Source: Candidatus Doudnabacteria bacterium
Lineage (GTDB): Bacteria; Patescibacteriota; Doudnabacteria; UBA920
Assembly (NCBI GenBank): GCA_031291995.1
Contig: JARLHZ010000025.1
Location: 91,965-155,964 of the forward strand
Direction: 5' to 3'
Length of the DNA stretch: 64,000 nt
Shown here: positions 42,192-62,289 of the stretch, one piece after another
Layout: each line of letters starts with the position of its first letter
Numbering within the stretch: position 1 is the stretch's first letter
Notes under the pieces: model-generated
Told to the model about the DNA's origin: nothing
Database searches by the model: none
The model's input: only the letters and a program-made list of their open reading frames with translations
Program-made: the position numbers and the translations under genes

Positions 42192-42596
42192 ATGAACAAA
42201 GCAAAAAATGTAGATGAATACATTACTAGAACCCCAAAGGAAGGGCAAGGCAAGCTGAAACAGCTTCGTGCGCTTATCAAAAAGATTGCTCCGGATGCGG
42301 AAGAACGAATCAGTTACGGGATGCCATTCTACGATTACAAAGGGCGGCTGGTTTATTTTGCCGCCATGCGAGGGTATATTGGACTTTACATTCCTCCGCC
42401 CATAATTGCCGATCATGCTAAGGAATTAAAGATATACGTGACCACCAAGTCCGCAATACACTTACCTCCTACAAAACTTCCCTTCGCTCTTATCAAAAAG
42501 AAAAAGAAAAAGGGTCAGGAGCAATTATCCCGAAATGCGCAAATCAAAAAATACCCTTGCGGGTATTTTTTACATGCAACCGTTCTTAACGGCTAA
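42192..42596 (+). CDS. DUF1801 (YdhG-like) domain protein
   Basis: ISYGMPFYDYKGRLVYFAAMRGYIGLY pattern; C-terminus runs through the terminator hairpin. Confidence 0.55.
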   Translation: MNKAKNVDEYITRTPKEGQGKLKQLRALIKKIAPDAEERISYGMPFYDYKGRLVYFAAMRGYIGLYIPPPIIADHAKELKIYVTTKSAIHLPPTKLPFALIKKKKKKGQEQLSRNAQIKKYPCGYFLHATVLNG

Positions 42597-42697
42597 ATAG
42601 TGATTAGAAAAGCTTAAACATTACTGCTTAAACGTACAACACCTAATGTTCACGTCACAAATTGTTTCAAGAAGCGCTAATTTTCGAAAAAATTAAC
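42566..42697. repeat. Direct repeat copy A (about 132 bp), preceded by intrinsic-terminator hairpin ATACCCTTGCGGGTAT
   Basis: TTTTTACATGC...TTAACGGCTAAATAGTGATTAGAAA...ATTACTGC...ACAACACC.AATGT...GCTAATTTTCGAAAAAATTAAC shared with 43866..43999. Confidence 0.8.
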
Positions 42698-42704
42698 TTA
42701 CTTT

Positions 42705-43751
42705 TTAATTTGTAGGTTTTTCTACTCTGTCGACCATAAATTTGACCGCCTCATTGGTATTTGTTGATTCGATAATAATATTTGGGTGTTTGGTTTGGAA
42801 TACTCGATAAATTTCGTCTACAAAAGCTTGTCCGACCGTCGGTACCTTATCGTAGTCAAAAACAATATGTCTAAATTTTTCAAGACCAGTCAGCACTCTC
42901 CTAGCTTGAGATCTCGAAACATAAATCGTCCCCATGGTATAAAGTTTTACCTGGACTTTAGTCTTGTCAAAATTTGGTTCATTCGGATCGGATGAAAAAG
43001 CTTTAAAGGTATCGCTTAAATGTTTTGTAGTATCTAGCGATATTTTAAAGGTAACGCGGGTGCCCTTTTTCAGACGCGGCAGTTCTCCAACAAAAATATC
43101 GGGAATGAGGTTATCTATCCTAAGCCGAAACTCAAAGCTTTCCAAGCTAAAAACATCTGCGACCTTGGAAGTGAAAAAAATCCCTTCGCCTGAATGAGCC
43201 TGTGGCTCAGTGGTAGTTTTTCCTTTCAGTAAATCTTGGATAGCTTCCAGTTCCGATTTTAGTCCGCGTTTTCTCATGACATTTTTAAATACGCCTACAC
43301 CAAAATCACTCACAACAAAGCAGAGGTTATTGTCTTCTTTTGCAACCTCAATTTCTATAAATTTTGACTTGGAATGTTCAATTGCATTATTTAGCATTTC
43401 AGAAAAAGCGTAATCAAAAATGCTGCGAATGCTTTCTTCAGCTTTAACGATGAACGGCAAGCGTCGGTTAATATCATTTAAAACCTCGTGTTCTTTTAAG
43501 GAGCTATTGCTGAGACGCAGTTTGATTTTATTGCCCAAGCTTTCCTGTGCCTCATCCTGTTTTCCTGGCAACACATAAAACGTGTTGGTGGTCTGACCTA
43601 CCCTCACGATCTTTCCTTCTTGGGCTAGACTGTTCAGCACTCTGCTCACATACTGCCTGGAGTACTGATTCTTTAAGGCTGTTACGGTATCACTGGTTTT
43701 AAGCCGTTTTTTCTCCTCTATTAGCCTTAATATGGTCTTTTTTATATCCAT
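42705..43751 (-). CDS. wHTH - GHKL (histidine-kinase-like) ATPase - DUF4325/STAS-like domain protein
   Basis: N-terminal wHTH; N-box LNNAIEHSKSK and G-box VSDFGVGV; C-terminal HIVFDYDKVPTVGQAFVDEIYRVF resembling DUF4325. Confidence 0.6.
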   Translation of the reverse strand: MDIKKTILRLIEEKKRLKTSDTVTALKNQYSRQYVSRVLNSLAQEGKIVRVGQTTNTFYVLPGKQDEAQESLGNKIKLRLSNSSLKEHEVLNDINRRLPFIVKAEESIRSIFDYAFSEMLNNAIEHSKSKFIEIEVAKEDNNLCFVVSDFGVGVFKNVMRKRGLKSELEAIQDLLKGKTTTEPQAHSGEGIFFTSKVADVFSLESFEFRLRIDNLIPDIFVGELPRLKKGTRVTFKISLDTTKHLSDTFKAFSSDPNEPNFDKTKVQVKLYTMGTIYVSRSQARRVLTGLEKFRHIVFDYDKVPTVGQAFVDEIYRVFQTKHPNIIIESTNTNEAVKFMVDRVEKPTN

Positions 43752-43755
43752 ATAT

Positions 43756-43828
43756 CTTGTAAACTAGTTAAATATTCTTGTAAACTAATTGTAAACCATA
43801 ATTTAAATCTTGTCAACCCGTTGTAAAC
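43756..43828. promoter_or_regulatory. Five iterated TTGT(A/C)AAC motifs immediately upstream of 42705..43751
   Basis: Copies at 43757, 43778, 43789, 43809 (TTGTCAAC) and 43821. Confidence 0.5.
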
Positions 43829-43865
43829 TTGCGCTCAGACATCAAAAAAACCACCCGTGAGGGTG

Positions 43866-43999
43866 GTTTTTACATGCGATTTTAACCTTTAACGGCTAAA
43901 TAGTGATTAGAAATAGTTAAGCATTACTGCCTAACAGCACAACACCGAATGTAATGCGTCAAAGTTGATTCAAGAACGCTAATTTTCGAAAAAATTAAC
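43866..43999. repeat. Direct repeat copy B (about 134 bp), preceded by terminator hairpin AACCACCCGTGAGGGTGGTT
   Basis: Aligned by eye to copy A, roughly 80% identity. Confidence 0.8.
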
Positions 44000-44227
44000 G
44001 ACGACCTATGGAATGTACACCAACAGTAACTTCGAAAAGTTACAGGATGTATATTTTATTCCTTAGAAAGGAGGTGTTACCGAGCCAACTTGACGCAATT
44101 TAACACTGTGTCAACAATAGGAATAATTTTTAATCTGCTACCTGTATTTTAACGCTGAACCAAACTTATGGCAAGGCCGCACCACGCTTGGCTTAGTGCC
44201 AGTAGTATGCTCTGGCTAATAAAACAA

Positions 44228-44295: not shown

Positions 44296-44631
44296 CTATT
44301 GTGGCATACTTTCCAACTTCATAAACTCTTCAAAGGGAATATCCTTACCACCGACAGCAATAACAGCATCGGAAACAGTATTCATACCCGAGCCTCCTAC
44401 CCACTCCTCGCCGACAATCTTGCCCATAACTTTTGCTTTTAATCTTTCAAAATCACCATCGCTTAACGGAGCCTCTTGGCTATTAGTTCGTGATCCATTA
44501 TTAACTTTAAACTTTAGCACAACATTTATAGGTTGTTTTTGCTTTTCTGCGTCTTCCAAACTCAATACCTCGGCTTGATAATCAACAACTGCTTCCGGAG
44601 GAGTTTGTAAGGTACCCATTTCTTTAGACAC
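44296..44631 (-). CDS. Hypothetical protein; annotated start lies inside IS3 terminal repeat
   Basis: 111 aa; first codons ATGTCTAAAGAAATGGGTACC coincide with the IS3 right-end inverted repeat. Confidence 0.3.
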   Translation of the reverse strand: MSKEMGTLQTPPEAVVDYQAEVLSLEDAEKQKQPINVVLKFKVNNGSRTNSQEAPLSDGDFERLKAKVMGKIVGEEWVGGSGMNTVSDAVIAVGGKDIPFEEFMKLESMPQ

Positions 44632-44651
44632 CTTGTAAGCGGTTTTTTAGG

Positions 44652-45491
44652 TTAAGTTAATGATACTTGATTTCGCTGCCGGTCGGCAAATGCTGACGGC
44701 GGCATTTTTAATGATGTGTGGATTCTGTAGTGATTGTAGCTATGGATAAGGAGGTAGATTTCGGCGGTCAGTTCCCCTAAGGTCTTAAACCTCCCCGGAT
44801 CACCTAAGTCAGTTTTAAACTTACCATAGAACGATTCCTGGTAGCCGTTTTCCCAAGGGCTGGATTTACGACTCATGGAAATTGTAATGCCGGCTTGTTC
44901 TGCAAGCCCGCAGTAAGTTTGAGACTTGTATTCCTGTCCTTGGTCGGAATGCAGGTATTTGGCGGCTGGGTGTTTTTCTAAAGCGTCAATTAAAGCCAGT
45001 AAAATTAACTGGCTGCTATGCGCGGTCCAGACTGACCAGCCGACAACCTCTCTGGTAAATAAATCTATTATCGTCGCCAGATAAACAAACCGGCCGTGGA
45101 ATGGTATGTAGGTAAAGTCACTGACCCAGACAATGCCTTCATGTTCAGGGAACGGAATCAGCAATAACCAATTCTGGTAGGGTGCGACAATTTGTCCTAA
45201 ATCCCGCTTCTTTGTTAGCTTTTTACCCCTCCTACGATAAGGCTTAATGCCAAACAGCTTCATGACGCGCCGGACTCTTTTTTTGTTTACTCCCAATACC
45301 GGAGCTAATCGTTTGTGGCCATAGCTTGGGTGGTCATGGAGGGTTTGTTCAATGCGGATTTTAAGAAGCCAGTCTTTTTGAGGAAGTGCCGGTTCGTAAT
45401 ACAGGCTGGCCCTACTGACTCCCAGACTTTTAGCCAATTCGGTCTTAGTCGGATTTTCAAGGTGCATAGACTCAGCCAGCTCCTTAACCAA
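44652..45491 (-). CDS. IS3-family transposase OrfB (rve/DDE integrase domain)
   Basis: 279 aa; DDE integrase-fold region (WVSDFTYIPF... HSDQGQEY...). Confidence 0.8.
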   Translation of the reverse strand: MVKELAESMHLENPTKTELAKSLGVSRASLYYEPALPQKDWLLKIRIEQTLHDHPSYGHKRLAPVLGVNKKRVRRVMKLFGIKPYRRRGKKLTKKRDLGQIVAPYQNWLLLIPFPEHEGIVWVSDFTYIPFHGRFVYLATIIDLFTREVVGWSVWTAHSSQLILLALIDALEKHPAAKYLHSDQGQEYKSQTYCGLAEQAGITISMSRKSSPWENGYQESFYGKFKTDLGDPGRFKTLGELTAEIYLLIHSYNHYRIHTSLKMPPSAFADRQRNQVSLT

Positions 45492-45750
45492 GTTCCTTTT
45501 TTTCCGCCAATGACAGTTTGACTGTCAGTCGGCCGATAATCTCGTGCAGGGTTTGGTTCTCCCGCTTTAGTCGGGACAGTTCAATCACCGAGGGCGGCGC
45601 GGTAACTCCCTTGGCTATCCAGCCGTAGATAGTCTGGGTGGACAAGCCATGTTCCTCGGCGGCTTGGGTGACACTGACGCCTTCTTCCTTAATGCGTTTT
45701 AAAATTTGCTGTTTGACTTCCAGGCTGACTTTGTATTTGCCTTTGGGCAT
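45484..45750 (-). CDS. IS3-family transposase OrfA (HTH)
   Basis: 88 aa HTH plus leucine-zipper-like; overlaps orfB by 8 nt around GGAAAAAAAG (minus strand, plus-strand 45496-45504). Confidence 0.8.
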   Translation of the reverse strand: MPKGKYKVSLEVKQQILKRIKEEGVSVTQAAEEHGLSTQTIYGWIAKGVTAPPSVIELSRLKRENQTLHEIIGRLTVKLSLAEKKELG

Positions 45751-45814
45751 AGTTAGAAATTCCTTTCTAACCTAATTATACCTCAGACTAAGTGTCTTAA
45801 ATTTGGGGTACCGG

Positions 45815-47005
45815 TCATAATTTGGTTTGATATTGTTTGTGAGTAGCGCGTTTCCATTCCATTTCTACTTGATATTTTCTGGATTGCAGAATATTTTGAT
45901 GTTCGTCTTGAGTAAAATGCACCTGGCCATTTTTGTCTACGCCAAAATGCTCCAGATAAATATCGTAATCGGACAAATAAAAGTCTGGTTTATATTGTCT
46001 GTATTCGCTATTGGAAGTTTTGTACTTATACGGAGCTTCGTATTGGTAATTAACGCCGTTAACACATAAAAAGTTGGCAACCATTACTTCCTGCTGGCTT
46101 TTTACCAATTCTTTTTTTAAAGTAAGATTCTGCTTGGTTTTAACATATTTATAATAGTCATCCAGATTTTTAAAGCCGGGCTTTAAAATTACCGGCTTAA
46201 AATAATAAGCAAAGTATTCCACTGCCCGCTGTAGATAGCTAGGGTTTTTTAGTAGCAAGCTAAATTGTTCGTCAAGAAAATTTTGTCTGGCTGTACTGCT
46301 AGGAAAAGCCAGATCCGGCCTTTGGTCAAGAGCTTTGCCAATAACTGACAAGCCAAAGCTATGGAAAGTTTGGGCTTTAACGCTGTTTTCCCCGAATTTT
46401 TTACTTATCCTATCGGCCAATTCTTCTACGGCCCTGCCGGTAAAAGACAAAAGCAAAATATCTTCCGGTTTAATTTTTACCCGCTCCAAGATGTATGCTA
46501 ATTTGCCCATTATGGTAGTTGTCTTGCCGGTGCCTGCGCCAGCTACTAATAATGTGTTGTCTTCGTCCGAAGCAATGGCCGTAACTTGGTCCTTGTTATT
46601 TTGGATTTGTTTCGCGCTTAGTATTTGCTTAATGGTAGACGATTCACGCTGAACAAAGTTTTCGTTAAATTTGTCAATAAACAGTTCCCTGCCTTTGTTA
46701 TAAAAGTCCGCAAAGTCGGTAACCAGTTTTTTAAATTGATCCCGCGTTTTAACTTTATACAATAACGGACTGAACATTTCGGCCAGATATTGATATTTGG
46801 TTTTCCACAACCGATATTGTCGATTGCTAATATACCAATTTTGCCTGCTTAAGCCGTTAAATTCGCCCAAGGCGTTCTTAAACTCCGGCTCGTGCTTCTT
46901 TAAGGCTAATAACAAATTAAGCGAGCGCCTATTTTTTAGGAACTCGCTAAATTCATAGGCTCCAAATATTAAAATGGCAATTATTAATACGGAAAAAAAT
47001 AACAT
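45815..47005 (-). pseudogene. UvrD/PcrA-like helicase N-terminal fragment, apparently truncated by the IS3 insertion
   Basis: Walker A LLVAGAGTGKTTTIMGK but only about 250 aa after it and no motifs IV-VI; its TGA stop is the terminal TCA/TGA of the IS3 end. Confidence 0.5.
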
Positions 47006-47018
47006 AAATATTTACATT

Positions 47019-47300
47019 CTAAATCTTTTCAGTATGTTTGCATTTTGGATAGCTTGTACAACCATAAAATTCTCCAAACTTGCCGGAACGTATTTGCATT
47101 GGACTGCCGCAAGCAGAGCAAATTTTGTCAGTCGAGTTTTCCGAAACCGTACCATTTTTTAATTTATTCTTGCGTTTTAAATAGTCTAAAAAATCCGGTG
47201 CTAATTCGGCAATAATATAAAAAACAGCCAAAACAATTAGCCAAGGCCAAAAAGTTTTTAACACCGACCAAAATATATTACCAACAAAATCAGGTTGCAT
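47019..47300 (-). CDS. Small membrane protein with topoisomerase-type C4 zinc ribbon
   Basis: N-terminal TM then CSACGSPMQIRSGKFGEFYGCTSYPKC (zf-C4_Topoisom-like). Confidence 0.5.
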   Translation of the reverse strand: MQPDFVGNIFWSVLKTFWPWLIVLAVFYIIAELAPDFLDYLKRKNKLKNGTVSENSTDKICSACGSPMQIRSGKFGEFYGCTSYPKCKHTEKI

Positions 47301-47599
47301 AAGTCACCTTAATTAATTGCTCGGCCAATTGTTCCTTTAGCCCGTCTTCTTCCACTTCCATTCTTATTTCGTCCTCTAAATCTTCAAGTGGCATAGGTTT
47401 TAACTACTTGATCTACCTTTTCCGGTTGTAATTATTTCCAAGGCTAAATAAGGCCCAAATGAAACCAACCAGGGTTAAGAAAACCGCGAGCCCTTTATGC
47501 CCGGTTTTAAAAAGAGCGTATATTAAGCAACAAAATGCTACAAAAAGTATGAAGTCTAACATTGGAGAATAATTACAATTTTAATGGCACAAAAGCCTT

Positions 47600-47935
47600 C
47601 TATTTGCCTCTGTTTTTTACTTCATAAATTTCCCAGGCATAATCAAATGGAAGAAGTGAGCATAAATAATTTCCGTCTTTGTCTTTGGGCGTATATTCAT
47701 CAACAATATCCAAAATTGCGCTTTGCTCTTCTTCGGTAAGTTCTCGGCCAACTATTTCCTCCAACTCAAGAAATTGCTCGTCTATAATTCCAATATTCCC
47801 CTCTATCCTCTGGTCTTCGTCCGAAGCCTGCTTCTGCGCCACTTTGTGTTCTTCCATAACCACCCAAAATACATCCTCAAGACTCATTTTGGGAAGCATG
47901 GTATCACTCGCAAATTTTTGTGCTTTGTTCTTCAT
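47600..47935 (-). CDS. Hypothetical acidic protein (111 aa)
   Basis: Co-directional with the downstream defence-like block; no recognisable motif. Confidence 0.4.
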   Translation of the reverse strand: MKNKAQKFASDTMLPKMSLEDVFWVVMEEHKVAQKQASDEDQRIEGNIGIIDEQFLELEEIVGRELTEEEQSAILDIVDEYTPKDKDGNYLCSLLPFDYAWEIYEVKNRGK

Positions 47936-47948
47936 ATTTTTTATAATT

Positions 47949-48251
47949 TTAATTTGGCAGTCTGCCTTCTTTTTCTCTTATAGGATAGGTTTCGGACTTT
48001 AAACAGCGGTTTATAATATTGTCCATATGCCAGTAAGTATTGCCGTTATAATCAAAGTAAACATTTTTTGTTGAGTAAAAATTTGCTTCGTAGCCGTAAG
48101 TATCTATATGGTTTGCTAAAGCTAAAAATAAGTTATTATCAACATTTTCCTGGACTATATACTCATGCGGCCAAGTCTTTGCGTAGTTCACCGCAAATAT
48201 CCACTTGGAGTTTTCTATAAATTGTTTTACAGCGTCTGGAAATTGCTTCAT
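47949..48251 (-). CDS. Hypothetical protein (100 aa)
   Basis: 13-nt spacing from previous gene; no recognisable motif. Confidence 0.4.
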   Translation of the reverse strand: MKQFPDAVKQFIENSKWIFAVNYAKTWPHEYIVQENVDNNLFLALANHIDTYGYEANFYSTKNVYFDYNGNTYWHMDNIINRCLKSETYPIREKEGRLPN

Positions 48252-48277
48252 CCAAATTTTTCTTTACTAATCAATTA

Positions 48278-49291
48278 TTATGCTTGGCTTTCGTATGACT
48301 TATGGACGGCAGCAATCACCTCAGGCAATGATTCAGCTGCTATGGTAAAATCCCATCCGCCGCCTTTATCTATGGCCATTCCTTTGGGCAGCTGGCCGCC
48401 AATTGCCCAGGTCCAACCCCAAATTTCACGAGAACCTTCGCCGTACTGAACAAAAATTTTAGACCTGTTTTCACTCCGGCGCAATGATACGAACCCGTTT
48501 TTTAAAGTATACCGGTAGATATCATCGCCAAACCCGTTCACAGTGGTTAAAAATTTACCAAGTACGCTGCCTTTTTCTGGAGCATTGGTCGAGGCCAAAA
48601 AGTCTGACAACTTTTCTGCACGAACTTCGCTCGACCTATGTGAAACGCCAATATTCTTCTTAGTCTCAACTCCGAATAACTTTGGAATCATTATTTCATA
48701 TTCGTTAAACTTGTAATAATCAAGTTGTATTGCGTATATGTCAAACTGGCTGTTTCGGTTGACATAGATAATTAAATCTTTTAACCTATCTTCCATTTCG
48801 TCCATTAATATTACAAATTTAAGATTACCCTCAAATAGATTGCGGCGCATTGCTTCTAAAAGCTCGTCTGTTTTTTCTTCATCAAGACTAAAAAATTCCG
48901 TAACCTTCTGTTTAAAACTCAAATTAAATTTTATCTCGACTTCCTCATCTAAAAGATGAATAAATTCGTTAAAATCACCTTGGTGTTTCCAAAGAGCCGC
49001 TCCATAATCAAGTGCTTGGGCAACTACCGTCCTTTTGTCCGGATTTTTAAATAGTTTGGTTTCCACAATATAAATATCTCCGTCCTTATCTATCGCCAAA
49101 GCATCGATCGACCCGGACTCTGTTGGAAACTCACGCGCAGCAACAAAGAGATGCTTGTCTTCTTCAATTTCATATACTGGAATTGACTCTGGATTTTGAT
49201 GGATATAATTTTGAAGGTAATCTTCCTTTTCAAAATTAGATTTGTCTATTTTTTTGGCGTTCATACCGCCTTGGGAAACAATAATACTCAT
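48278..49291 (-). CDS. Hypothetical protein with N-terminal PD-(D/E)XK-like (Hjc/NucS-like) motif
   Basis: GSIDALAIDKDGDIYIVETKL (D...D/E-x-K arrangement) near residue 60-80; C-terminal domain unassigned. Confidence 0.45.
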   Translation of the reverse strand: MSIIVSQGGMNAKKIDKSNFEKEDYLQNYIHQNPESIPVYEIEEDKHLFVAAREFPTESGSIDALAIDKDGDIYIVETKLFKNPDKRTVVAQALDYGAALWKHQGDFNEFIHLLDEEVEIKFNLSFKQKVTEFFSLDEEKTDELLEAMRRNLFEGNLKFVILMDEMEDRLKDLIIYVNRNSQFDIYAIQLDYYKFNEYEIMIPKLFGVETKKNIGVSHRSSEVRAEKLSDFLASTNAPEKGSVLGKFLTTVNGFGDDIYRYTLKNGFVSLRRSENRSKIFVQYGEGSREIWGWTWAIGGQLPKGMAIDKGGGWDFTIAAESLPEVIAAVHKSYESQA

Positions 49292-49382
49292 ACATTATCT
49301 ATTAATTGTGAATTTAATATTTACGCCAATGGCTATAGTTGATCCCGTCTTCTAAATCTTCATATTCAACGGACATAGGGTA

Positions 49383-50120
49383 TTATTTTTCTACTGCTTG
49401 GGCTTTGGCCCTATATTGGCAAAATTCACATTCAAGATTGGATTCGGGCAAATCGGATAGGTTTAAGCAATCGTAAATATTAAAAATTGTTTGCTCTACC
49501 CAAGAGTCACTGCCGGTATAAGGGATTAGTTTGGCATCAAATTCCAGTACGCCGTTAAAACCTGCTCTGTCTTTCTTTCCATTCACGTAAAAAAAGTAGC
49601 CGGTATTGGAAACTTTTAGGCCATTTTGCCTTAACAACCACTGGTAGACTTCCATTTGCCTGCGGTAGGAGTTGTGCCATTTGGCGTCAGTTAGTTCTAC
49701 TTCGCCCTCCTTGCTGGTGGCCTTGTAATCCACCACAATATATTCTCCCGCCGAATTTTTCCACAAATCATCTATGGCCCCATAAACTAGCATATTGATT
49801 TTTTTGTGGAGGCACTGCACGCCTGTAAAGTTATGCCGCCACTGGTCCAAAAGTTCATGAGCCACAGGAACAGCGTCCAGGCCGTAAGTTTCCATAAGCG
49901 GATGTTTGGTTCCGTTGGCGCGGTATACATCAAACTCTTTTTTTAGCAAAGCGTCCACAGCCACATTCAAAGTAAATGCTGGGCCAGATGGCCTGGAAAT
50001 CCCCAACCGCCGGTCCATATAAAAACAGCGCGGACAATCCAAAAACATATCAATCTTTGATCGGCTCAATTTAAAAGGTTTATCAGACGCAGGGTTGTAC
50101 AAATTGTTTATTCTAGGCAT
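49383..50120 (-). CDS. Cas4-like / RecB-family PD-(D/E)XK nuclease with four-cysteine cluster
   Basis: N-terminal CPRCFY and C-terminal CEFCQY cysteine pairs; GAIDDL, IVVDYKAT and QMEVYQWL (QhxxY) nuclease motifs. Confidence 0.6.
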   Translation of the reverse strand: MPRINNLYNPASDKPFKLSRSKIDMFLDCPRCFYMDRRLGISRPSGPAFTLNVAVDALLKKEFDVYRANGTKHPLMETYGLDAVPVAHELLDQWRHNFTGVQCLHKKINMLVYGAIDDLWKNSAGEYIVVDYKATSKEGEVELTDAKWHNSYRRQMEVYQWLLRQNGLKVSNTGYFFYVNGKKDRAGFNGVLEFDAKLIPYTGSDSWVEQTIFNIYDCLNLSDLPESNLECEFCQYRAKAQAVEK

Positions 50121-50180
50121 TTACTTTCCTTAAAATTTTCATAAATTTAACAATACTTAATGGGTTATATCCCCCACCGC

Positions 50181-51344
50181 TTATTCGGTTTTATTGGTAT
50201 GGGAAAGCTCTTCAAACTTAGCAGCCATTGTAGGGTTGCCGCGCGTTAGTCTTTTGATTGTCAAATCTTCTGCTTTATCATTAGCGAGACGGAGATTATT
50301 TTCAGACGATAAGAGAGCCTCTTTGGTTTTCTGAAGATGGTCTATGGTTTTGTCAATTTCATCGATTGCTGTTTTAAAACGGTTAGAAGCAATCTGGTAA
50401 TTTTTAGAAAAGCCCTCTTTAAATTTATTAATATTGTCCTCAAAGTTTGTGATGTCAACATTTTGGTTCCTCACCAAAGCAAGCTCGGCTTTGTATTTAA
50501 GTGAATTCATGGCCGAGTTGCGCAGCAGGGTTATCATTGGGATAAAAAATTGTGGGCGGACCACATACATTTTGGGATGTTTATGGGATACATCAACAAT
50601 GCCGGTATTATATAGTTCATTTTCGGCTTCCAAAAGCGTAACAAGGACGGCGTATTCGCACTTCTTCTCTGTCCGATCTTTATCAAGCTCGCGTAAAAAA
50701 TCTTCATTTTTGTGTTTTGTAGCGGTTTCGTCGCCTTCATTTTTCATCTCAAACATAATAGAAATGATTTCATTGCCGACCTCATCATTTTCGCGATAAA
50801 TGTAATCACCCTTACTGCCGGATTTTGTATTGTTGTCTTTTTCGAAATACGCATTCTGAAAACCGGTCGCGCGAAGCTTGTTAAACTCGGTTTCGCAGTG
50901 CTGTTCAAGGGTTTCGCCAACCATCTTCGTTGAGAGTTTAAGCTTCATATCCTTACGGAAAGCAATTTCGTCGTCCTTCATCTTTATAATGTCGTCCTTG
51001 GTCCTGAGTTCGGCGGCAAGTTCGTCACGTTCTTTCGCAACTTTATTGACCGCTTCTGTGACTGCGAGTTTTTTCTCTATTTCTGCATTACTGTTTTTTG
51101 ATTTTATTTCGGCTAATTCAGCTTCCTTCTTCGCAATGTCCTTTTGCAATGCATTTGTAATATTTGCCTCTGCAAGTTTAACAGCAGTTTCTTTATTTTT
51201 TTCCAACATTTCTATACGCTCATGCAGTTCTTTTTCAAACTCATGATTGCGGACTTGCTTCAAAATATCGGCAAATCCTGCTTCGTCGACTTTAAAAGCT
51301 TTTTTACAATGTGGACATATAATTTCATTCATATTTTTGAACAT
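50181..51344 (-). CDS. DUF2130-like coiled-coil protein with N-terminal CxxC
   Basis: [36 protein letters not shown] start and long coiled-coil. Confidence 0.5.
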
Positions 51345-51359
51345 TAATTTTGCAACATC

Positions 51360-54323
51360 CTATATGCTCATTTTATTAAGTACGTGCTCAAACACGCGCT
51401 CTTGCACAAACTTTTTTAATTCCGGATTTTGGTCGAGTTTTTGGTACAGACTAAAATGATTATCCAATACTCCAACAAGCTCGTCCTGAAAGAGTTGGTC
51501 AAATTTTAACTTGGCTGCGTCTTTGCTGTTATTTTTTACGGAGCCTTTTAATACATGGTTATTTACCAAACGCGAACTTAAATCGTTTAAAATTACCCGG
51601 TCGCCGTCGTTAAAATTTGTTCCGTAGCGCTCATTAATTTCTTTAATGATTCTTGAAAGAGGGTCTATTGCCGCCTCGGCAATACGGCCTTCCCCTCCCC
51701 CGCCCATAGGATAAATAATTCCCTCTGTATTGTCTAATTGTATATTTACCTTGCCCTTGTTCTCAATCCTGTAAGTTTCCATATCTATTGCATCCAATAC
51801 CTCCACCGGCAACGGATTTTCCCGCTTAGGCGATTTTTTGATTAAAAATTTTAAAAAGATGAACAGCTTTTCCAGTTGTGGATCTTTAAAAGTAATTATT
51901 TGGGAAATAAAGGCATACTTTTTTAAATATTCCGCAACCGTGGTTTTAAAGCTTTCCATTTCTTCTTCTGTCAGGTTCTCGTCATTTATCCTGGCTACCA
52001 CATTGTCAATAATATGGTTAAGTTTATCCGGCGTTGCTCCACCCAAGTATTCTTCAGTAAACCCATTGATTTCAAAGTCGGTAAAAAATTTAAACCCACG
52101 CACTTCGCGTTCCAAATTGTGCAAAATGTTCGGGTCCGTCGCTTCAGACAGCACCGTGGTAGTGTAATACGGTTGGAAAGCTTCTTTAATGTCGTCCGTC
52201 TCATTTACGAAATCCAAAACAAAAGTTTCGTCTTTGCCGTACGTAGTTCTGTTTAAACGCGAAAGTGTTTGAACCGCTCTAACATCGCTGAGTTTTTTGT
52301 CCACATACATAACCGTTAGCATAGGCTGGTCAAAACCGGTTTGAAATTTTTCCGCCACAATCAAAAATTTATTTTCGTCCTTCTTAAATTCTTCAGCCGT
52401 TTGGCTTTCCGGGACTTTATTCATTTGACCTTCGGTATATTCCAGTTTTGTATCCACGTCTTTTACAGTGCCCGAAAAAGCCACCAAGGCTTTATGATTG
52501 TAGCCTTTTTCTTTAAGGTATTTATCAAAAGCAATTTTGTAACGAACCGCGTGCAAACGGGACTTTGTAACCACCATTGCTTTTGCGCGTCCCGCAATGA
52601 GTAATGCAATTTTTTCTTCAAAATGTTCCACCATAATAGCCGTTTTTTTATCAATGGCATGCTCATGGCGCTCTACATAGCCAATCATAAGCCTTTGGGC
52701 TTTTTTCTTATCAAATTCCGGGTCGTCTTCTATTTTTTTGAGTAAGCCAAAATAAGTTTCGTAAGTGGTGTAGTTTTTTAGCACATCCAAAATAAACTTT
52801 TCTTCTATGGCCTGCTTCATGGAATACAAAGAAAACGGAATAAATTTACCGGTAACCGCGTCCTTGTCTCCAAATAGTTCCAACGTCTTCTGCTTTGGCG
52901 TGGCGGTAAAAGCAAAAAATGAAAGGTTCGGGGAACTGACCTTTCTAGCCTTCATGCGCTCAATAATTTGGTCTTCAACTGTTTTAAAAACATGCTCTTC
53001 TTTTTCGGCTTGCTTTTCGGCTTCATCTAAAGTTAATACCTGACGTAAATCCGCCGCGGACTCCCCGGACTGTGAAGAATGCGCTTCGTCTATAATTACC
53101 GCAAATTTTTTTCCTTCAACTTTTTCTATTGTCTCTACAATAACCGGGAATTTCTGCAAAGTGCTTGTTAGTATTCTAACCCCGGTTTCCAAGCCCTCGC
53201 GCAGTTCGGCGGATGTTTCCACGTGCTTAACCAAACCTTTAACCTGGCTAAAATCTGTTACCGTATTAGAAAGTTGCCTGTCTAAAACCCGGCGGTCAGT
53301 TACTACAATAACGCCGTCAAATACATTTTTATTGGAATCGTCATGAAGTTCTGCAAGACGGTGCGCCACCCAGGCAATGGTATTGCTTTTGCCGGACCCG
53401 GCGCTATGTTGAATTAAATAATTTTTGCCGGTTCCATTTGCCTGCGCGTCTACAACAATTCTCTTTACGGTTTCTAATTGATGATACCGTGGAAAGATTA
53501 ATTTTTCTTCCTTTTTCTTTTTGCCGTTCTTGTCTTCTTTTTCTTCCGTCACTTCCTGAATGAAATTGCCTATTAAATCAAACACACTGTCCTTGGAAAA
53601 AATATCTTCCCACAAATAATGCGTTTTGTATTTTCCTTCCGGCGCTTCCGGATTTTTAGATGAGTTTTTGTCGCCTTTATTAAATGGCAAGAAAACCGTG
53701 GAAAGACCCGAAAGCCGGGTGGTCATAAACGCCAAGTCTGTATCTACCGCAAAATGAGTAAAGCAGCGCTTAAAAGATAAAAGTTTTTCTTTATTGTCGC
53801 GGTCGGTTTTATATTGTGATATGGCGTTAATAACATTTTGCCCGGTAAACTGATTTTTAAGCTCTATTGTAAACACCGGTAAGCCATTTACAAAAATAAC
53901 CATATCTATGGAATTTTCATTCTTGCCACTATATTTAACCTGCCTCATAACACTTAAAATATTCCCGGCATAATCGGCAACCGTCTCCGGGTTCCTGTCA
54001 TTCTGCGGTTTAAAATAAGCAAGCTTAACCCGCACTCCCCTGTCTGTAATGCCCTCACGAAGCACGCTTAACAAACCACGCGAACTAATTTCTTCATCCA
54101 CCCGAGCCAAAAACCTCTCCGCGACATCTTCCCCATACTGCTCAACCAGCTTCTCCCAAGCCTCATTTTGAGTCTCCAAAACAAACTCCAAAACCAGCTC
54201 TGCATCCATACAGAGCTCTTTATTAAAAGTTGAATTTAATCTAGATTTATACTTATGAAGCTTTATCAGCTCCTGCTCTATAAATTCCTCAAAACCCGAT
54301 TCTTTAGTGTTAGATTTTGTCAT
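51360..54323 (-). CDS. hsdR: Type I restriction enzyme R subunit
   Basis: 987 aa; Walker A HSAGSGKSNT, DEAH box VIIDEAHSSQ, helicase C-terminal motifs, N-terminal nuclease region. Confidence 0.9.
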   Translation of the reverse strand: MTKSNTKESGFEEFIEQELIKLHKYKSRLNSTFNKELCMDAELVLEFVLETQNEAWEKLVEQYGEDVAERFLARVDEEISSRGLLSVLREGITDRGVRVKLAYFKPQNDRNPETVADYAGNILSVMRQVKYSGKNENSIDMVIFVNGLPVFTIELKNQFTGQNVINAISQYKTDRDNKEKLLSFKRCFTHFAVDTDLAFMTTRLSGLSTVFLPFNKGDKNSSKNPEAPEGKYKTHYLWEDIFSKDSVFDLIGNFIQEVTEEKEDKNGKKKKEEKLIFPRYHQLETVKRIVVDAQANGTGKNYLIQHSAGSGKSNTIAWVAHRLAELHDDSNKNVFDGVIVVTDRRVLDRQLSNTVTDFSQVKGLVKHVETSAELREGLETGVRILTSTLQKFPVIVETIEKVEGKKFAVIIDEAHSSQSGESAADLRQVLTLDEAEKQAEKEEHVFKTVEDQIIERMKARKVSSPNLSFFAFTATPKQKTLELFGDKDAVTGKFIPFSLYSMKQAIEEKFILDVLKNYTTYETYFGLLKKIEDDPEFDKKKAQRLMIGYVERHEHAIDKKTAIMVEHFEEKIALLIAGRAKAMVVTKSRLHAVRYKIAFDKYLKEKGYNHKALVAFSGTVKDVDTKLEYTEGQMNKVPESQTAEEFKKDENKFLIVAEKFQTGFDQPMLTVMYVDKKLSDVRAVQTLSRLNRTTYGKDETFVLDFVNETDDIKEAFQPYYTTTVLSEATDPNILHNLEREVRGFKFFTDFEINGFTEEYLGGATPDKLNHIIDNVVARINDENLTEEEMESFKTTVAEYLKKYAFISQIITFKDPQLEKLFIFLKFLIKKSPKRENPLPVEVLDAIDMETYRIENKGKVNIQLDNTEGIIYPMGGGGEGRIAEAAIDPLSRIIKEINERYGTNFNDGDRVILNDLSSRLVNNHVLKGSVKNNSKDAAKLKFDQLFQDELVGVLDNHFSLYQKLDQNPELKKFVQERVFEHVLNKMSI

Positions 54324-54433
54324 AATCTTATAAAATACTTATAACGGTTACATAAGAAAGGCCTATATTTATTGCATTTTTTTGATAATTTTTCTAAAAT
54401 TGGTTTAACTTGTTACATAAGATAGTTTAAAAA

Positions 54434-54462
54434 TTGACAGGCGGGATACATTCGTTTACAAT
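54434..54462 (+). promoter_or_regulatory. Consensus sigma70-type promoter TTGACA-N17-TACAAT (plus strand)
   Basis: TTGACA 54434-54439, 17-nt spacer, TACAAT 54457-54462; AGGTG RBS and ATG at 54482 follow. Confidence 0.45.
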
Positions 54463-54541
54463 AGGTATATGCAGGTGCTTGATGGCCATTGAGCCATTAA
54501 GTATGCGGGCATACATTGAATGTATACCCCGCAGGCCTGCT

Positions 54542-55207
54542 TTATCTCCATTTTACTCTCCATTCGTTGAACCGGCTATTGCCCACGGCAAGCCGGATTT
54601 TTTGTACCTCCGTAGCTAATCGGCCTTTTATTTTATCGGAACCTTTATAAACCGAACTGCCAAGCAAAACATCAGCCATTTGAACTAATAATACGCCATG
54701 GCTGTCCACTTGCAAAACATCCCACAGCTGAGGAACAACTGCCGGAAGTGTAGAAATAGAATGGGTCGGTGCCTTTTTTGGCTGCCTTAAATAATCCGCG
54801 ATTAAGGTTGTCTTTTCTTCAGCTTTTAAATTTTTTTGAAGCAGCATTTTAATATAACGCAAATAACATTCCCAGGATTCCAAATAGTCTTTCGGCGCCT
54901 GGAATTTAACGTCATTTAAGTCTACAAAAAAAGAACAAAATCTCCAATTGGGTTCGTTTAACAAAATTTTCAAACAATTTAAATAATAAGGCAGAGATTT
55001 TTGCGTAACGGAGGTAAATTTAAATTCAACCCTACTACTGTCTTTTTTTAGCGCGTTGCATAACCCTTCATACTCGCTATGAAGCGCGGTAATAAGTTTG
55101 TCCGGGAACGAATGGACAATCGCGCCCACCGCAAAATACCTTACAGCCCGATTCTGCACATTAAGCGTACCCGACTCATCCAAAAAACAAAAAGTTGGTT
55201 TAATCAT
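54542..55207 (-). CDS. DUF3800-like protein
   Basis: N-terminal CFLDESGT (DESG start typical of DUF3800); 221 aa; embedded between hsdS and hsdR. Confidence 0.5.
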   Translation of the reverse strand: MIKPTFCFLDESGTLNVQNRAVRYFAVGAIVHSFPDKLITALHSEYEGLCNALKKDSSRVEFKFTSVTQKSLPYYLNCLKILLNEPNWRFCSFFVDLNDVKFQAPKDYLESWECYLRYIKMLLQKNLKAEEKTTLIADYLRQPKKAPTHSISTLPAVVPQLWDVLQVDSHGVLLVQMADVLLGSSVYKGSDKIKGRLATEVQKIRLAVGNSRFNEWRVKWR

Positions 55208-56521
55208 TTATACTTTCACTTTCCCCGTAACCACATTGGAAATTAGGGAAGATTTAAATTTGTTTAATAATTCAATTGATTTTTCTGTTTTTTCTAAAAT
55301 AGCATTAAATGTTGAAATTTTTTCATCTAAGAACTTAATAATTAAATTTTGTTCGTCTTTGCTTGGATAAATCATTTCCAACGAACTTAAGTCAAAAGGA
55401 GTGATTGCTGGGTAGCCAATGCCTTTTGAATTAAGAATGACTTGACTAATAAATCTATCGGACTGTAAGTAATAAAAAAGGTATTTTGGCAATAAGTTTT
55501 TACCAGGAGTTAATACGGCAAAACCAGTAGATGCAATAGTATTTGTATCGAGTTTATCAAAATAAGCAATGGCCTTTAAGTAAGTTCTAACTGTAGCGAT
55601 TATTGAATCGCCAACACTCACAACTCTACGAGCCCTACTTGGTGCTTTTTCAAAAGTAATTTCATTTTCTATATTTGACGCCTCTTCTCCATCCACAGAC
55701 CCAATGTCAAAATATTTAAAAGAGAAGTCGGGATCTGTGTTCTCTGAAAGAGATTTTTTATTCATTTGGGAGACTCTTTTTATTTTTTCAATATTCCATC
55801 CTTTCGGAATTTTGCCAATCCATTCGACATCGCTTTCAACATACTCAGCTTTTGGGTCAAGGCCTTTTGACACGGCATTATTAATAACAGCCGTGCGTTT
55901 TTCGCGCAGGAGTTCTATTAACTTTTGCTTTTTTTCAATAATTTGGTCAATGGTTGCAATTTTTTCGTCGAGATAATTTGCAATTTTTTCTTGCTCATTA
56001 ATATTTGGGATTAATGTTGGCAAATATTTAAAATTGCTAAAATCTAGCGTTTGTCTAACCCCTCCACCCATCCCATAATAAACTTTCTGAATGTCGTAGG
56101 CGTGAAATAAATAGTAGGTGAATTTTGAGTTTAATTTTTCACTCAATTGCAACGCTAAATAAGCTGAAGTAATTATACCTGGCTCATCAAAGTTCATATA
56201 GCCGACTCTTAAACTTTTTTTGTCATTTTGTAAGTCAGTCAGACGAAATACAATATTCCCTTTATTTATAACTTGATAAGTATTGAATGATTCTGGTAGT
56301 AATCCCTCGTTTGAGTCGATATCTTTTTGAATTATTTTACCATAGCTTAATGATAAGAGATTATTACATTTTCCCTCAATATTATTTTGTTCATTTTCAA
56401 AAGCGACTGATCGCAAGGGTGTTACATCCCAATCTTTAGGAATTTTGCCAATCCACTCAACGCCCGAGTTTTTGTATTCGGGATATTTTTTATATTCTTT
56501 TTTTAGCTGTAATTTAGGCAT
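55208..56521 (-). CDS. hsdS: Type I restriction-modification specificity subunit (two target-recognition domains)
   Basis: 437 aa; two TRDs separated by conserved helical spacer (IDQIIEKKQKLIELLREKR) and C-terminal repeat of the same. Confidence 0.85.
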   Translation of the reverse strand: MPKLQLKKEYKKYPEYKNSGVEWIGKIPKDWDVTPLRSVAFENEQNNIEGKCNNLLSLSYGKIIQKDIDSNEGLLPESFNTYQVINKGNIVFRLTDLQNDKKSLRVGYMNFDEPGIITSAYLALQLSEKLNSKFTYYLFHAYDIQKVYYGMGGGVRQTLDFSNFKYLPTLIPNINEQEKIANYLDEKIATIDQIIEKKQKLIELLREKRTAVINNAVSKGLDPKAEYVESDVEWIGKIPKGWNIEKIKRVSQMNKKSLSENTDPDFSFKYFDIGSVDGEEASNIENEITFEKAPSRARRVVSVGDSIIATVRTYLKAIAYFDKLDTNTIASTGFAVLTPGKNLLPKYLFYYLQSDRFISQVILNSKGIGYPAITPFDLSSLEMIYPSKDEQNLIIKFLDEKISTFNAILEKTEKSIELLNKFKSSLISNVVTGKVKV

Positions 56522-57732
56522 ATTTGTAAATATTGTGGAAAACGGTACGGGGTCAAGACATTTTGTGATTGAGCCTGTGGAAAAGTTTCCATTAAGGGAT
56601 TAAAGAGGTTGTCCAGGATTAACATCGGAAAGCGGCAGATCTGGTCGGCATTGTATATGCCAAGAGAGTCAAGTTTTTCTTTAGGCGACATTCCGTTCAT
56701 GCCAATACCGTCAGAGGCGCGACGGTTGTAGTAAAAATTCCAGTACTGTCCTTCTATCAGAAAATCGGAGTTACTGTTAATGTGTTCCCCCCTGGGGCAG
56801 TAAAATTCTTCGTCGTCGATCCTGTGCGTCCGTTCCACCAGGTTGTTCTTCCACTTTGCTCCGCCTGTCCACTCGGCCGCGGCTCCCAGCGGCTTTAACT
56901 GTTCGTTCCAATCCGCAAGCTTCCTCTCTGAAGCGGAAAAGAATTCCGCGCCGCCGTCCATTCGCGTGTTAATATTGTTTTGTATGTTATGGGCTCTCAG
57001 CCAGAGAATTACGGTTTGTAAAAACTTTAATCCATAAAAAGAACTTAAGGTATACGACCAGGCCAAGAATCTGGTTTTGGTCTTGGCGTCAACAATCGTC
57101 CATTGGTATTTGGGCAGAGCAAGCTTTTGGCTTTTAAACTTCTGATAAATTTCTTTCGGCAAAGCGTGTTGGTCTAAAATTTCCTTGGTATCGTACTGTA
57201 ATTGCTCAAATGCCCCAATTTCCGCATAGTTGTACAAGGCCCTGCGTTCCCCGTTAACGGTCCTAATCTTTTTCCCTTTTAGCCCCAGTCTTTTGTAAAC
57301 TCCCTTGATTTTGGAAAAAGTAAAGGCCTCCATGTCCAGCCCGGCTATTTTAAAATGCTTGTAGAGGCGTTTAAAGCCGTAGTTTAATTTCAAATGTTTC
57401 TCTGTGATGGTTTTTTCGGTATTTTCGTCAGCCGTCCGCTTGTTGGTCTTGGGCCTTCTGGACTCAAACTTTAAAAATTCAAACAGCTTTAAATCATCAG
57501 TTTTAATCTTTTCGTTGCAGGACAGCAGGCAAAGGACTTTAGAGTCAGACTGATTTTTACAAAGTTTAATAATTTCATTAACGGTATTTTTATGGCAGCC
57601 GATATCCCGGGCAATGTCTTTTTGGGGGATGTGGTCGGCAAAGTAATGGCGGGCGATTTTCAGCCGGGTGATGATCGGCCCTTCGGTTTTGCAATTGTCC
57701 TTGTAACTCATTACAATACTTTTACAGGTCAT
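56503..57732 (-). CDS. DDE (rve-type) transposase, IS481/IS30-like single-ORF
   Basis: N-terminal HTH; WTIVDAK, RMDGGAEF, NLVERTHRIDDEEF = D,D,E catalytic triad spacing; stop overlaps hsdS start by 19 nt. Confidence 0.65.
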   Translation of the reverse strand: MTCKSIVMSYKDNCKTEGPIITRLKIARHYFADHIPQKDIARDIGCHKNTVNEIIKLCKNQSDSKVLCLLSCNEKIKTDDLKLFEFLKFESRRPKTNKRTADENTEKTITEKHLKLNYGFKRLYKHFKIAGLDMEAFTFSKIKGVYKRLGLKGKKIRTVNGERRALYNYAEIGAFEQLQYDTKEILDQHALPKEIYQKFKSQKLALPKYQWTIVDAKTKTRFLAWSYTLSSFYGLKFLQTVILWLRAHNIQNNINTRMDGGAEFFSASERKLADWNEQLKPLGAAAEWTGGAKWKNNLVERTHRIDDEEFYCPRGEHINSNSDFLIEGQYWNFYYNRRASDGIGMNGMSPKEKLDSLGIYNADQICRFPMLILDNLFNPLMETFPQAQSQNVLTPYRFPQYLQICLNYS

Positions 57733-57787
57733 TGTCGTATTCTGTTTTAGTTATTACTCGTAACTAAATTATACGGCAATGGCTTGT

Positions 57788-57982
57788 TTAATTTTCAGCC
57801 GGAGCTGATCCGCCTGTGGCGGAAATGTGAAGGCCTTTATCGACTTTAAAGGTTTTAAGGTATTTGAGGTAATGACGCTGTCTTTTCCTTACTTTTCCCA
57901 AAAACCGCTTAAATTCTACCTTGGCGGCGATCACATTATGTATTGTATCCTCTATTAATATTGTGGAAAACAAGCTTGACAA
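57788..57982 (-). CDS. Hypothetical small protein (64 aa)
   Basis: ORF only; between transposase and NYN gene. Confidence 0.2.
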   Translation of the reverse strand: MSSLFSTILIEDTIHNVIAAKVEFKRFLGKVRKRQRHYLKYLKTFKVDKGLHISATGGSAPAEN

Positions 57983-58069
57983 ACGTTCATATAATAGTTA
58001 AAATAGAAACGATCGAAAGATCACGAACTCTATAGCTTAAGGGCTCCGCAAGGAGTCCTTTTTGCATGG

Positions 58070-58834
58070 TTATGAACCAGCTGGTTTTGGACCATCCATT
58101 TCTCTGTTCCAACAAATAAAATTTTTAATTTTCTGAATATCGTAAATAAACAAGCCTTGTGAGGTTAGAGACGCTAATTCACTGGCCACTCTTCGAGGAG
58201 TGGAAAAAATAAAGACCTTTTTACCATTTTGGAGCAACTGCTCAATAGGCCCCGCAAAATCGCTGTCTCCGCTCCAAAGCACGAAACAATCCGCTTCCTT
58301 TTTCTCAAAAGCAAGCATCATGTCCCGGCCAATTTCTACATCAAAATTGCATTTGCGATCTTCAATAAAGTAAGTCCCGAGTTTGTTTAACTCTCCCAGT
58401 TGCGCGTTTAGGTACTCAACCACTTCAACCTTTAACCGCCTTAAAAGCGAAGGCCGAATAAAACTTTTAAGGATATCAGTAGATGACGGAGAAATACTGG
58501 AGACATCAATAGACTTTTGCATAATTTTTACAGGTTTTGTAATACAGCCAGGTCCAAAAGCCTTAGTAAGGTCCTTATTTTCGTGTTCAGACTCTTTATC
58601 GCCAATTAAAGTACCGTTATAAATCTTAATTTCCTTGACAGCGCCAAAGGAGTCAAAAAACTGTTTGACCCTAAAAGGCTCTACATGCCAACCCAACTTA
58701 TCGGCCCACGGTCTAACATTGGCAAAATCGATATAAATTTTCGTAGAAACGCTTAAAAGCGTATCCATCTCGGAAATTCTTTCCGGGAACATTTGCGCAA
58801 GTAAGTCAATTTTTACCGTTTTGGCTTTAAACAT
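58070..58834 (-). CDS. NYN-domain (LabA/PIN-like) protein
   Basis: YIDFANV ... ADCFVLWSGDSDFAGPIEQLLQNGKKVFIFS matching NYN acidic-residue pattern. Confidence 0.75.
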   Translation of the reverse strand: MFKAKTVKIDLLAQMFPERISEMDTLLSVSTKIYIDFANVRPWADKLGWHVEPFRVKQFFDSFGAVKEIKIYNGTLIGDKESEHENKDLTKAFGPGCITKPVKIMQKSIDVSSISPSSTDILKSFIRPSLLRRLKVEVVEYLNAQLGELNKLGTYFIEDRKCNFDVEIGRDMMLAFEKKEADCFVLWSGDSDFAGPIEQLLQNGKKVFIFSTPRRVASELASLTSQGLFIYDIQKIKNFICWNREMDGPKPAGS

Positions 58835-59001
58835 AATAATGTGCTATTAGTAATGGCTGGCAATAATAACTTGGAATATGCTATGGTGTCCCTCCGGAGA
58901 ATCCGGAACTTAAGCTGTAAATAACCATTTTCCTAGACGCCGCCATTCTTGAATACCTAAGGGGATGTGATTCCTTGTCGCCCTCCCCTTTTTTATTTAT
59001 A

Positions 59002-60996: not shown

Positions 60997-61008
60997 ATTT
61001 AGATTTTG

Positions 61009-62145: not shown

Positions 62146-62257
62146 AGGCCAAGTATAGCACGTAATATAGTCTTGTCAAATTAAATATTTAGGCTTTAAC
62201 CTTTAATATAGTAATAATGAATTAAAACTCAATTTACAATTCCCCCCAAAGCTTACC

Positions 62258-62289
62258 ATATCAAAAGCCCCGGCTTTTGTACGGGGCTT
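62258..62289 (-). terminator. Intrinsic terminator (minus strand)
   Basis: AAGCCCCG-loop-CGGGGCTT followed on the minus strand by TTTTGAT. Confidence 0.5.

Follow-up and report, generated by a model that had tools for sequence, protein, structure and literature searches.

A single gene set between two direct repeats, each fused to a hairpin, raises the question of what the repeats are and how they came to flank the gene. Such an arrangement was found in a 64-kb stretch of a Candidatus Doudnabacteria contig (JARLHZ010000025.1, positions 91,965 to 155,964; hereafter the window), where a gene on the minus strand (42705..43751) encodes a 348-aa protein with winged helix-turn-helix (wHTH), GHKL ATPase and STAS-like DUF4325 domains (Pfam). 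A sequence-only reading of the locus had proposed that the repeats are attachment site (att)-like boundaries of a small mobile cassette or duplicated RNA elements, and that the protein controls its own promoter. It is close to certain that both repeats are orphaned versions of the 3' trailer (3' external transcribed spacer) that follows 16S rRNA in Patescibacteria. That one stands at either end of the GHKL gene is most likely due to the insertion of islands at a conserved core of the trailer, followed by decay. Loci outside the window are designated below by L numbers.

Identity of the repeats

Copy A (42546-42697) and copy B (43846-43999) were 79% identical over 159 columns (blastn E 4e-32), so that the bracketing of the single gene by direct repeats, as first described, was confirmed. 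Both blastn and nhmmer found exactly two copies in the window. Three blocks are identical in A and B: a 25-nt core (42586-42610 / 43889-43913), a 23-nt block (42675-42697 / 43977-43999) and GCATGTAAAAA. The core, which reads UUUCUAAUCACUAUUUAGCCGUUAA as RNA, is thus present in identical form in direct repeats at both ends of the gene, as is expected of att sites. Each copy also contains the hairpin that had been noticed before, ATACCCTTGCGGGTAT in copy A (42552-42567; ATACCC-TTGC-GGGTAT) and ACCACCCGTGAGGGTGGT in copy B (43850-43867). Since each hairpin has an A-run at one flank and a T-run at the opposite flank, as judged by sequence and RNA folding, they are predicted to be bidirectional intrinsic terminators that close each copy on the minus strand.

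A 20-mer from the 25-nt core had seven matches in reference genomes, and five of them (two in Doudnabacteria and three in Saccharibacteria) are located directly 3' of GGATCACCTCCTTTCT, where Rfam sets the end of the 16S gene. The same core pattern was found in 27 metagenome contigs, 11 of which are 16S-adjacent, while at least seven are orphans that start at CACCTCCTTTCT without a 16S gene upstream. The search for further copies in related genomes was therefore successful at both levels, and the repeats are not a feature specific to the cassette. Both A and B matched the profile of the DNA that lies directly 3' of 16S genes elsewhere. No 23S gene was detected downstream of the 16S gene in L004 (~7 kb) and L007 (~1 kb). 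These 16S genes are unlinked to 23S, and the element is their 3' trailer, which ends in a terminator because of this separation. Rfam scans at gathering and permissive thresholds gave no family for the repeats. The best sub-threshold hit was Phe_leader (29 bits against a threshold of 55), and this assignment was rejected because the score is driven by the terminator and falls below the gathering threshold.

Searches with the trailer profile (nhmmer) revealed that copy B does not end at 43999, as was first reported, but reaches 44076, 77 nt further. It covers profile positions 1-229 (44076-43827, E 7e-55) and starts with the final 12 nt of 16S rRNA, CACCTCCTTTCT (44076-44065). Alignment to 16S-linked trailers likewise defines copy B (43846..44076, minus strand) as a full-length orphan trailer, in which hairpin 1 (~44051-44015), hairpin 2 (43999-43977), the core (43913-43889) and the terminator (43867-43850) follow one another. 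Copy A (42546..42697, minus strand) covers just profile positions 80-220 (E 3e-27) and is a partial copy. It begins 7 nt past the GHKL stop codon, so that it would form the 3' untranslated region (UTR) and terminator of the GHKL mRNA. The nearest relative of copy A is the 16S-linked trailer of L045 (88.5% identity), and those of copy B are the trailers of L003 and L023 (85% identity). Because each copy is closer to trailers of other genomes than the two are to each other (79%), this comparison argues against a recent local duplication.

The 101 nt upstream of copy B (44077..44177, minus strand) form a conserved flank, here called the P-arm. It contains a promoter-like, sigma-70-like site, TTGCCA-17-TAAAAT (44174-44169 and 44151-44146), and GGCTCGGTAA stands directly before CACCTCC. 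The P-arm and the flank of the orphan in L037 (L037 3846-3962) shared 80% identity, including TTGCCA-17-TAAAAT. A 26-28-nt stretch from GGCTCGGTAA into CACCTCCTTTCTAAGG is identical in L017, as is the junction GGCTCGGTAA|CACCTCC. Upstream of copy B we found neither a 16S remnant nor similarity to the leaders of L007 or L010.

As a separate observation on 16S genes, the Doudnabacteria 16S gene of L006 (1-2199) was split into several Rfam segments, and one intervening stretch holds an open reading frame of 260 aa (686-1468). Insertions occur in 16S genes of the Candidate Phyla Radiation (CPR), and the pattern of L006 fits this.

Trailer RNA structure and pairing with the 16S leader

Twenty-four trailers were aligned, and the pairing in the predicted helices was compared with that after sliding the partners and with 500 shuffles. 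Pairs were formed in 96.7% of the alignment cells, compared with 34-49% when the partners were slid. Both sides had changed in 17 of the 28 pairs, and none of the 500 shuffles matched the observed values. In helix 5, the hairpin 2 of the trailer, 8 of 10 pairs had both-side changes; this helix reads GUUAAUUUU-UUCG-AAAAUUAGC with a UUCG tetraloop in copy A (42675..42697). The trailer is thus a structured RNA supported by covariation. In its fold, the anti-Shine-Dalgarno sequence is concealed by a UCCUU/AAGGA hairpin, and two long hairpins, the loops of which are UUCG or GNRA, and the terminator make up the rest. The earlier suggestion that the minus strand of the repeats encodes an RNA with an intrinsic terminator is borne out by these data, the terminator being at the end of the RNA.

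Among the loci, only L007 extends over a 16S leader, in which a complement to the core was found (24 of 25 pairs), beside the boxA-like sequence GTTCTTTAACA; the boxA of E. coli is GCTCTTTAACAATTTATCAGA. A second segment of the L007 leader pairs with the conserved trailer sequence GGUGUUGUAC. The predicted energy of the duplex between core and leader was -56.7 kcal/mol, compared with -39.8 ± 4.6 kcal/mol for shuffles. Since the leader carries the complement, the core of a native trailer is predicted to be the 3' strand of a pre-16S processing helix formed with the 16S leader. The window contains no complement of the core elsewhere, hence no leader partner for A or B.

The orphan trailer of L017 (2380-2650), which is located downstream of an integrase gene and a GHKL gene, retains GGCTAAATAGTGATT, a leader-like strand whose complementarity to the canonical core is better than that to the diverged core of L017 itself. 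In the predicted fold, the helix formed by GGCTAAATAGTGATT closes the whole element.

Islands and integrases at trailers

The clearest junctions were seen in L038. Its 16S-linked trailer is identical to those of the empty-site relatives L022 and L033 as far as the core and then diverges into an island of 4.2 kb, in which AbiE genes and the remnant of an integrase gene are present. The island is followed by a diverged 16S end and the 5' part of a trailer, then by a core-like sequence, and finally the native 3' end of the trailer and the Fur-ZIP-RRM genes resume. This departure from, and return to, the L022/L033 sequence places the island junctions at the core. In L004, the 16S gene, its trailer, a 348-aa gene, a partial trailer from the core on, a helicase gene and the usual downstream genes follow in this order. 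L042 contains one full orphan and two partial copies within 5 kb, with small gene sets in between. The partial second copies of both L004 and L042 start at the core. The left edges of partial copies vary and were found at trailer positions 80, 101, 144 and 151.

Genes for tyrosine integrases were present at 10 of 37 non-redundant trailer loci. The integrases share 35-62% mutual identity and are all encoded on the trailer strand, for example in the order 16S-trailer-integrase (L030) and in the order integrase-orphan (L034, L027, L005/L008). Other cargo at the trailer loci includes genes for a Zeta toxin, a Schlafen/AlbA_2 protein, a NucS-like nuclease and a ParB-N protein, and cargo of this kind is typical of islands. 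The comparison of empty sites (L033, L022) with occupied ones (L038, L004) concerns cargo other than the GHKL cassette. The proposal of att-like boundaries is thus supported in part: islands lie between trailer copies, the junctions of L038 fall at the core, and an integrase family accompanies the trailers, whereas an integrase is absent from the window, and an empty site for its cassette was sought without success. The searchable literature yielded no report of integration at the 3' end of 16S.

In scans of viral contigs, no exact core was detected and only one weak 17-mer match (13 bits) was obtained. These scans gave no evidence for a phage nature of the element.

A+T-rich orphan trailers were also observed on G+C-rich contigs, namely the 'Bryobacterales' contig CAVOPN010000013.1 (L005 6196-6900 and L008 1077-5901), L020, L027 and L034. 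Each of these orphans is preceded by the 3' end of a tyrosine integrase gene, a promoter-like site (TTGACA-17-TAATGT), a boxA-like sequence, a short hairpin and CACCTCCTTTCT. The arrangement looks like an rRNA operon without its 16S.

The GHKL gene and its genomic contexts

Pfam detected DUF4325 (4e-08), HATPase_c_2 (7e-07) and HATPase_c (5e-06) in the GHKL protein, together with weak N-terminal winged-helix matches. The protein is 100% identical to a protein of a Candidatus Doudnabacteria metagenome-assembled genome at NCBI and has more than 6,600 homologues. To judge from these matches the family is very common in CPR bacteria, and the architecture is therefore not rare. No PADLOC family, no NCBIfam family and, in a sequence search of the PDB, no solved structure was found for the protein, and literature searches gave nothing on the function of DUF4325.

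The six closest contexts of the gene (76-100% protein identity) have different neighbouring genes in each, and in five of the six (the window, L009, L014, L017 and L018) the gene lies beside trailer-derived sequence. One trailer copy is present on each side in the window. A trailer is located 83 nt upstream in L009, a full orphan ~100 nt downstream in L014, and a 48-nt 5' remnant upstream in L018; the order in L017 is integrase, GHKL, orphan trailer. In the sixth context, L010, a 16S gene lies 750 nt upstream of the GHKL gene, and its trailer diverges after ~70 nt and was missed by the trailer profile. From these contexts we infer that the GHKL gene is a recurrent passenger that travels with trailer sequence. 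More distant GHKL homologues of L012 and L053 adjoin tRNA genes, which are a classic island border. In L053, a tRNA-Asn gene was observed 36 nt after the stop codon of the GHKL orthologue.

Between two trailer copies of L042 (1842-2899), a 242-aa MerR-type helix-turn-helix protein with GHKL-like N and G boxes is encoded, followed by a separate 105-aa DUF4325 protein. The similarity of the 242-aa protein to the GHKL domain is weak (E 0.007), and the pair may tentatively be regarded as a split GHKL + DUF4325 version of the window gene.

Promoter and motif array of the GHKL gene

The region between the GHKL gene and copy B (43752..43845, minus strand) was analysed by a promoter scan and a motif count. 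It contains five TTGT(A/C)AAC motifs, at 43757, 43778, 43789, 43810 and 43821, in one orientation and with a spacing of 21/11/21/11 bp. On the minus strand, they read GTT(T/G)ACAA at 43828-43821, 43817-43810, 43796-43789, 43785-43778 and 43764-43757, and the nearest ends 5 nt from the ATG, in agreement with the original description. In the whole window, TTGTMAAC was observed 9 times versus 5.6 expected. The best sigma-70-like site of the region is TTGACA-17-TACAAT (-35 at 43816-43811, -10 at 43793-43788). Two of the five repeats contain its -35 and -10 hexamers, and of the remaining three, the first lies upstream of the -35, the second at the predicted transcription start and the third directly in front of the ATG.

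This array of five repeats was found conserved in L009, L010, L012, L017 and L018. The Saccharimonadia orthologue of L053 (59% protein identity) has the same layout (L053 5830-6003) with five to six copies of CTAACATAGA instead of GTTTACAA, and these overlap TTGACA (-35) and TAAAAT (-10). Phased repeats of one orientation that lie over the promoter and are conserved in orthologues are thus present, as is expected of an operator. A motif that shifts with the protein lineage under a constant layout is what an autoregulatory operator would show. The idea that the motifs are binding sites of the protein's own wHTH is therefore favoured by the conservation of the array and by the motif exchange in L053, and has to be qualified in that two of the supposed iterons are the -35 and -10 hexamers. 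The GHKL gene is probably autorepressed via its own wHTH on the five repeats. A wHTH bound to all of them would cover the -35, the -10, the transcription start and the ribosome-binding region.

Surroundings of the locus

The gene convergent to the GHKL gene encodes a DUF1801 protein (42192..42596, plus strand), the homology of which to relatives ends at residue 103 (nt 42500). The last ~31 codons (42501-42596) have no counterpart in the 115-120-aa homologues and extend across the terminator hairpin of copy A, and this comparison makes a breakpoint near 42500 likely. On the other side of the cassette, 44296-63150 contains IS3 (44652-45750), truncated UvrD, a PD-(D/E)XK nuclease, DUF2130, DUF3800, NYN and Fic genes and a type I restriction-modification system (HsdR/S/M), with tRNA-Thr at 63075-63150. 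Independent assemblies break at ~44635 and ~62967. The region 44296-63150 is a strain-variable defence-type island, and the surroundings of the GHKL locus fit an island.

Two further RNAs were noted in the window. A DUF3800-V RNA (Rfam RF02964; 58852-58947, plus strand) scored 57.7 bits against a threshold of 37.4 and lies within the type I restriction-modification cluster, where it separates the NYN gene from hsdM and is on the strand opposite to the genes. The DUF3800 gene itself is at 54542-55207. A tRNA-Ile with the anticodon TAT (UAU), which is uncommon in bacteria, was found at 4815-4891 (plus strand).

Origin of the arrangement

The observations can be combined into one reading, which we consider moderately probable as a whole: the repeats are 16S trailers, they came to flank the gene through the insertion of islands at the trailer core, the window holds a decayed array of such insertions, and the gene is autorepressed. 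The islands would have been inserted at the core while travelling with one tyrosine integrase family, and every insertion would leave an island flanked by trailer sequence at either end. The locus of the window would then be composed of the full orphan B with its upstream arm, the GHKL gene as a passenger and the partial copy A, the integrase having been lost. In the present arrangement, the terminator of copy B would shield the GHKL promoter from upstream transcription, and that of copy A would end the convergent DUF1801 transcription as well as that of the GHKL gene.

A more elaborate form of this proposal appears unlikely to us. The trailer core would be the attachment site of a dedicated Patescibacteria family of tyrosine integrases, with relatives on an Acidobacteria contig, and the att arm of the element would be a promoter-equipped, 16S-less 'mini rRNA operon' consisting of a leader-like strand, the 16S 3' end, the trailer and the terminator. 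The orphans, copy B and the GHKL 3'UTR among them, would be transcribed, and by pairing with the pre-16S leader they would couple the expression of the island and the GHKL gene to ribosome maturation.

Several points weigh against the insertion of islands at the core. In the window itself the repeats do not lie directly 3' of a 16S gene, since just the last 12 nt of 16S precede copy B, and an Rfam scan detected no small-subunit rRNA anywhere in the 64 kb. Pfam and tblastn searches of the window found no integrase. Copy A has its left edge at trailer position 80 instead of at the core, and the cassette is thus without clean att junctions. An empty site for the GHKL cassette, which had been suggested as a check, was not found through DUF1801 homologues, which showed no conserved synteny. 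The specificity of the integrases for the core is suggested by gene adjacency and one comparison of occupied with empty sites. Most trailers were collected by an exact match to the core, so that the invariance of the core is partly built in. Finally, the host's own 16S-23S spacer in L005 is unrelated to its Acidobacteria-type orphans, and a simple model in which attB is the host trailer fails to explain these orphans.

The conserved structure could also be viewed from the side of function. The orphan trailers might be working small RNAs, B being ~300 nt long and transcribed from its own promoter and A being the GHKL 3'UTR; the core would pair with the pre-16S leader or act with the GHKL protein to tune ribosome maturation, and the link to islands would be secondary. 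Orphans of several types do share one start at an RNA-domain boundary, CACC, and their hairpins are kept by compensatory changes. The promoter-like TTGCCA-17-TAAAAT is conserved between the window and L037, the Acidobacteria-type copies have TTGACA-17-TAATGT and a boxA-like sequence, and L017 retains the leader-like strand GGCTAAATAGTGATT. However, a leader complementary to the core is missing from the window, the left edges of the partial copies (80, 101, 144 and 151) resemble recombination scars rather than genes, and the conservation of structure could be an inheritance from recent 16S-linked ancestors. We therefore regard this explanation as doubtful. A local tandem duplication or gene conversion of a terminator module in this genome, without any mobile element, would account for direct repeats 1.3 kb apart, for the identical 23-nt and 25-nt blocks and for a window that lacks an integrase. 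It would not account for the greater similarity of A and B to foreign trailers than to each other, for the trailer-gene-trailer layout with unrelated cargo in L004, L038 and L042, or for the recurrence of the GHKL gene with trailer sequence in different genomic contexts, and is improbable.

Single-gene cassettes between ~150-nt structured repeats, three of which stand within 5 kb in L042, recall an integron-like array in which the repeats are attC sites, and by eye the repeat ends come within one mismatch each of GTTRRRY and RYYYAAC. This resemblance does not extend to the repeats themselves, which are homologous to an rRNA trailer and whose covariation-supported fold consists of several local hairpins instead of a single long imperfect attC hairpin; moreover, no IntI-type integrase was found in the window by Pfam and tblastn. 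An integron origin is thus highly improbable. It is just as difficult to regard the 16S-less junction at copy B as an assembly chimera, although rRNA regions are frequently misassembled in metagenome-assembled genomes. From the GHKL gene to the IS3 boundary, the sequence is the same in an independent Logan assembly (5 samples), the non-16S flank GGCTCGGTAA|CACCTCC is common to L017, L037 and other orphans, and a k-mer join would need more than the twelve bases that are shared. Insertion of islands at the trailer core, followed by decay, is the reading that we prefer to these alternatives.

Implications for CPR genomes

Most CPR bacteria have small genomes with, usually, a single rRNA operon, and their mobile elements are little known. 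If the trailer is a preferred landing site of islands, this would help explain why 16S genes stand apart from 23S genes and beside variable accessory genes. It would also account for the conservation of the spacer across classes and for the breaks of metagenome assemblies at the trailer. An orphan CACCTCCTTTCT followed by a trailer would then be a simple marker for islands and their cargo in CPR metagenomes. The common, uncharacterised wHTH-GHKL-DUF4325 proteins would be encoded at island borders, by 16S trailers or tRNA genes, and this position would point to a role in mobile elements, with a candidate autoregulatory operator.

Comparison with known systems

Tyrosine integrases put genomic islands into the 3' ends of tRNA and tmRNA genes, for example in the tandem ssrA islands of Dehalococcoides. 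The trailer loci are similar to these islands in that direct repeats of the 3' part of the target flank the islands, tandem arrays occur, and an integrase gene is located beside the repeat. The cargo of defence, toxin-antitoxin and regulator genes is also alike, and the GHKL homologues of L012 and L053 lie beside tRNA genes. The difference is that the target here is the 16S trailer, and that the repeat is up to ~230 nt long and is a structured RNA with a terminator. Element-borne copies may, in addition, include the 16S 3' end and a promoter-like arm, and the window has no integrase. The kind of element is thus known, namely site-specific islands at the 3' ends of RNA genes, and its 16S-trailer version is without description in the searchable literature. 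The likeness to integron cassettes is limited to short single-gene units between structured repeats of similar size; IntI is lacking here, the fold differs, and the repeats are homologous to an rRNA spacer.

As an RNA, the trailer resembles the spacer strand of the leader-spacer processing helix of rRNA operons (RNase III stem, boxA antitermination), since it immediately follows 16S, has a complement in the L007 leader near a boxA-like sequence and contains covarying hairpins. In contrast to that helix, the copies of the window are without a 16S gene or a leader partner, and the trailers of L004 and L007 end in a terminator. The 3'ETS-leuZ of E. coli is a small RNA from a transcribed spacer, and the putative RNA of the orphan trailers would be comparable in its derivation from a spacer, in its end at an intrinsic terminator and in the possibility, in principle, of pairing in trans. 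The GHKL protein itself recalls the SpoIIAB/SpoIIAA partner-switching pair, since it combines HATPase_c_2 with the STAS-like DUF4325 and gave a weak match to TIGR01925 (spIIAB). In the GHKL protein, however, both domains are fused with a wHTH, no sigma factor partner accompanies them, and the scores are far under the family cut-offs.

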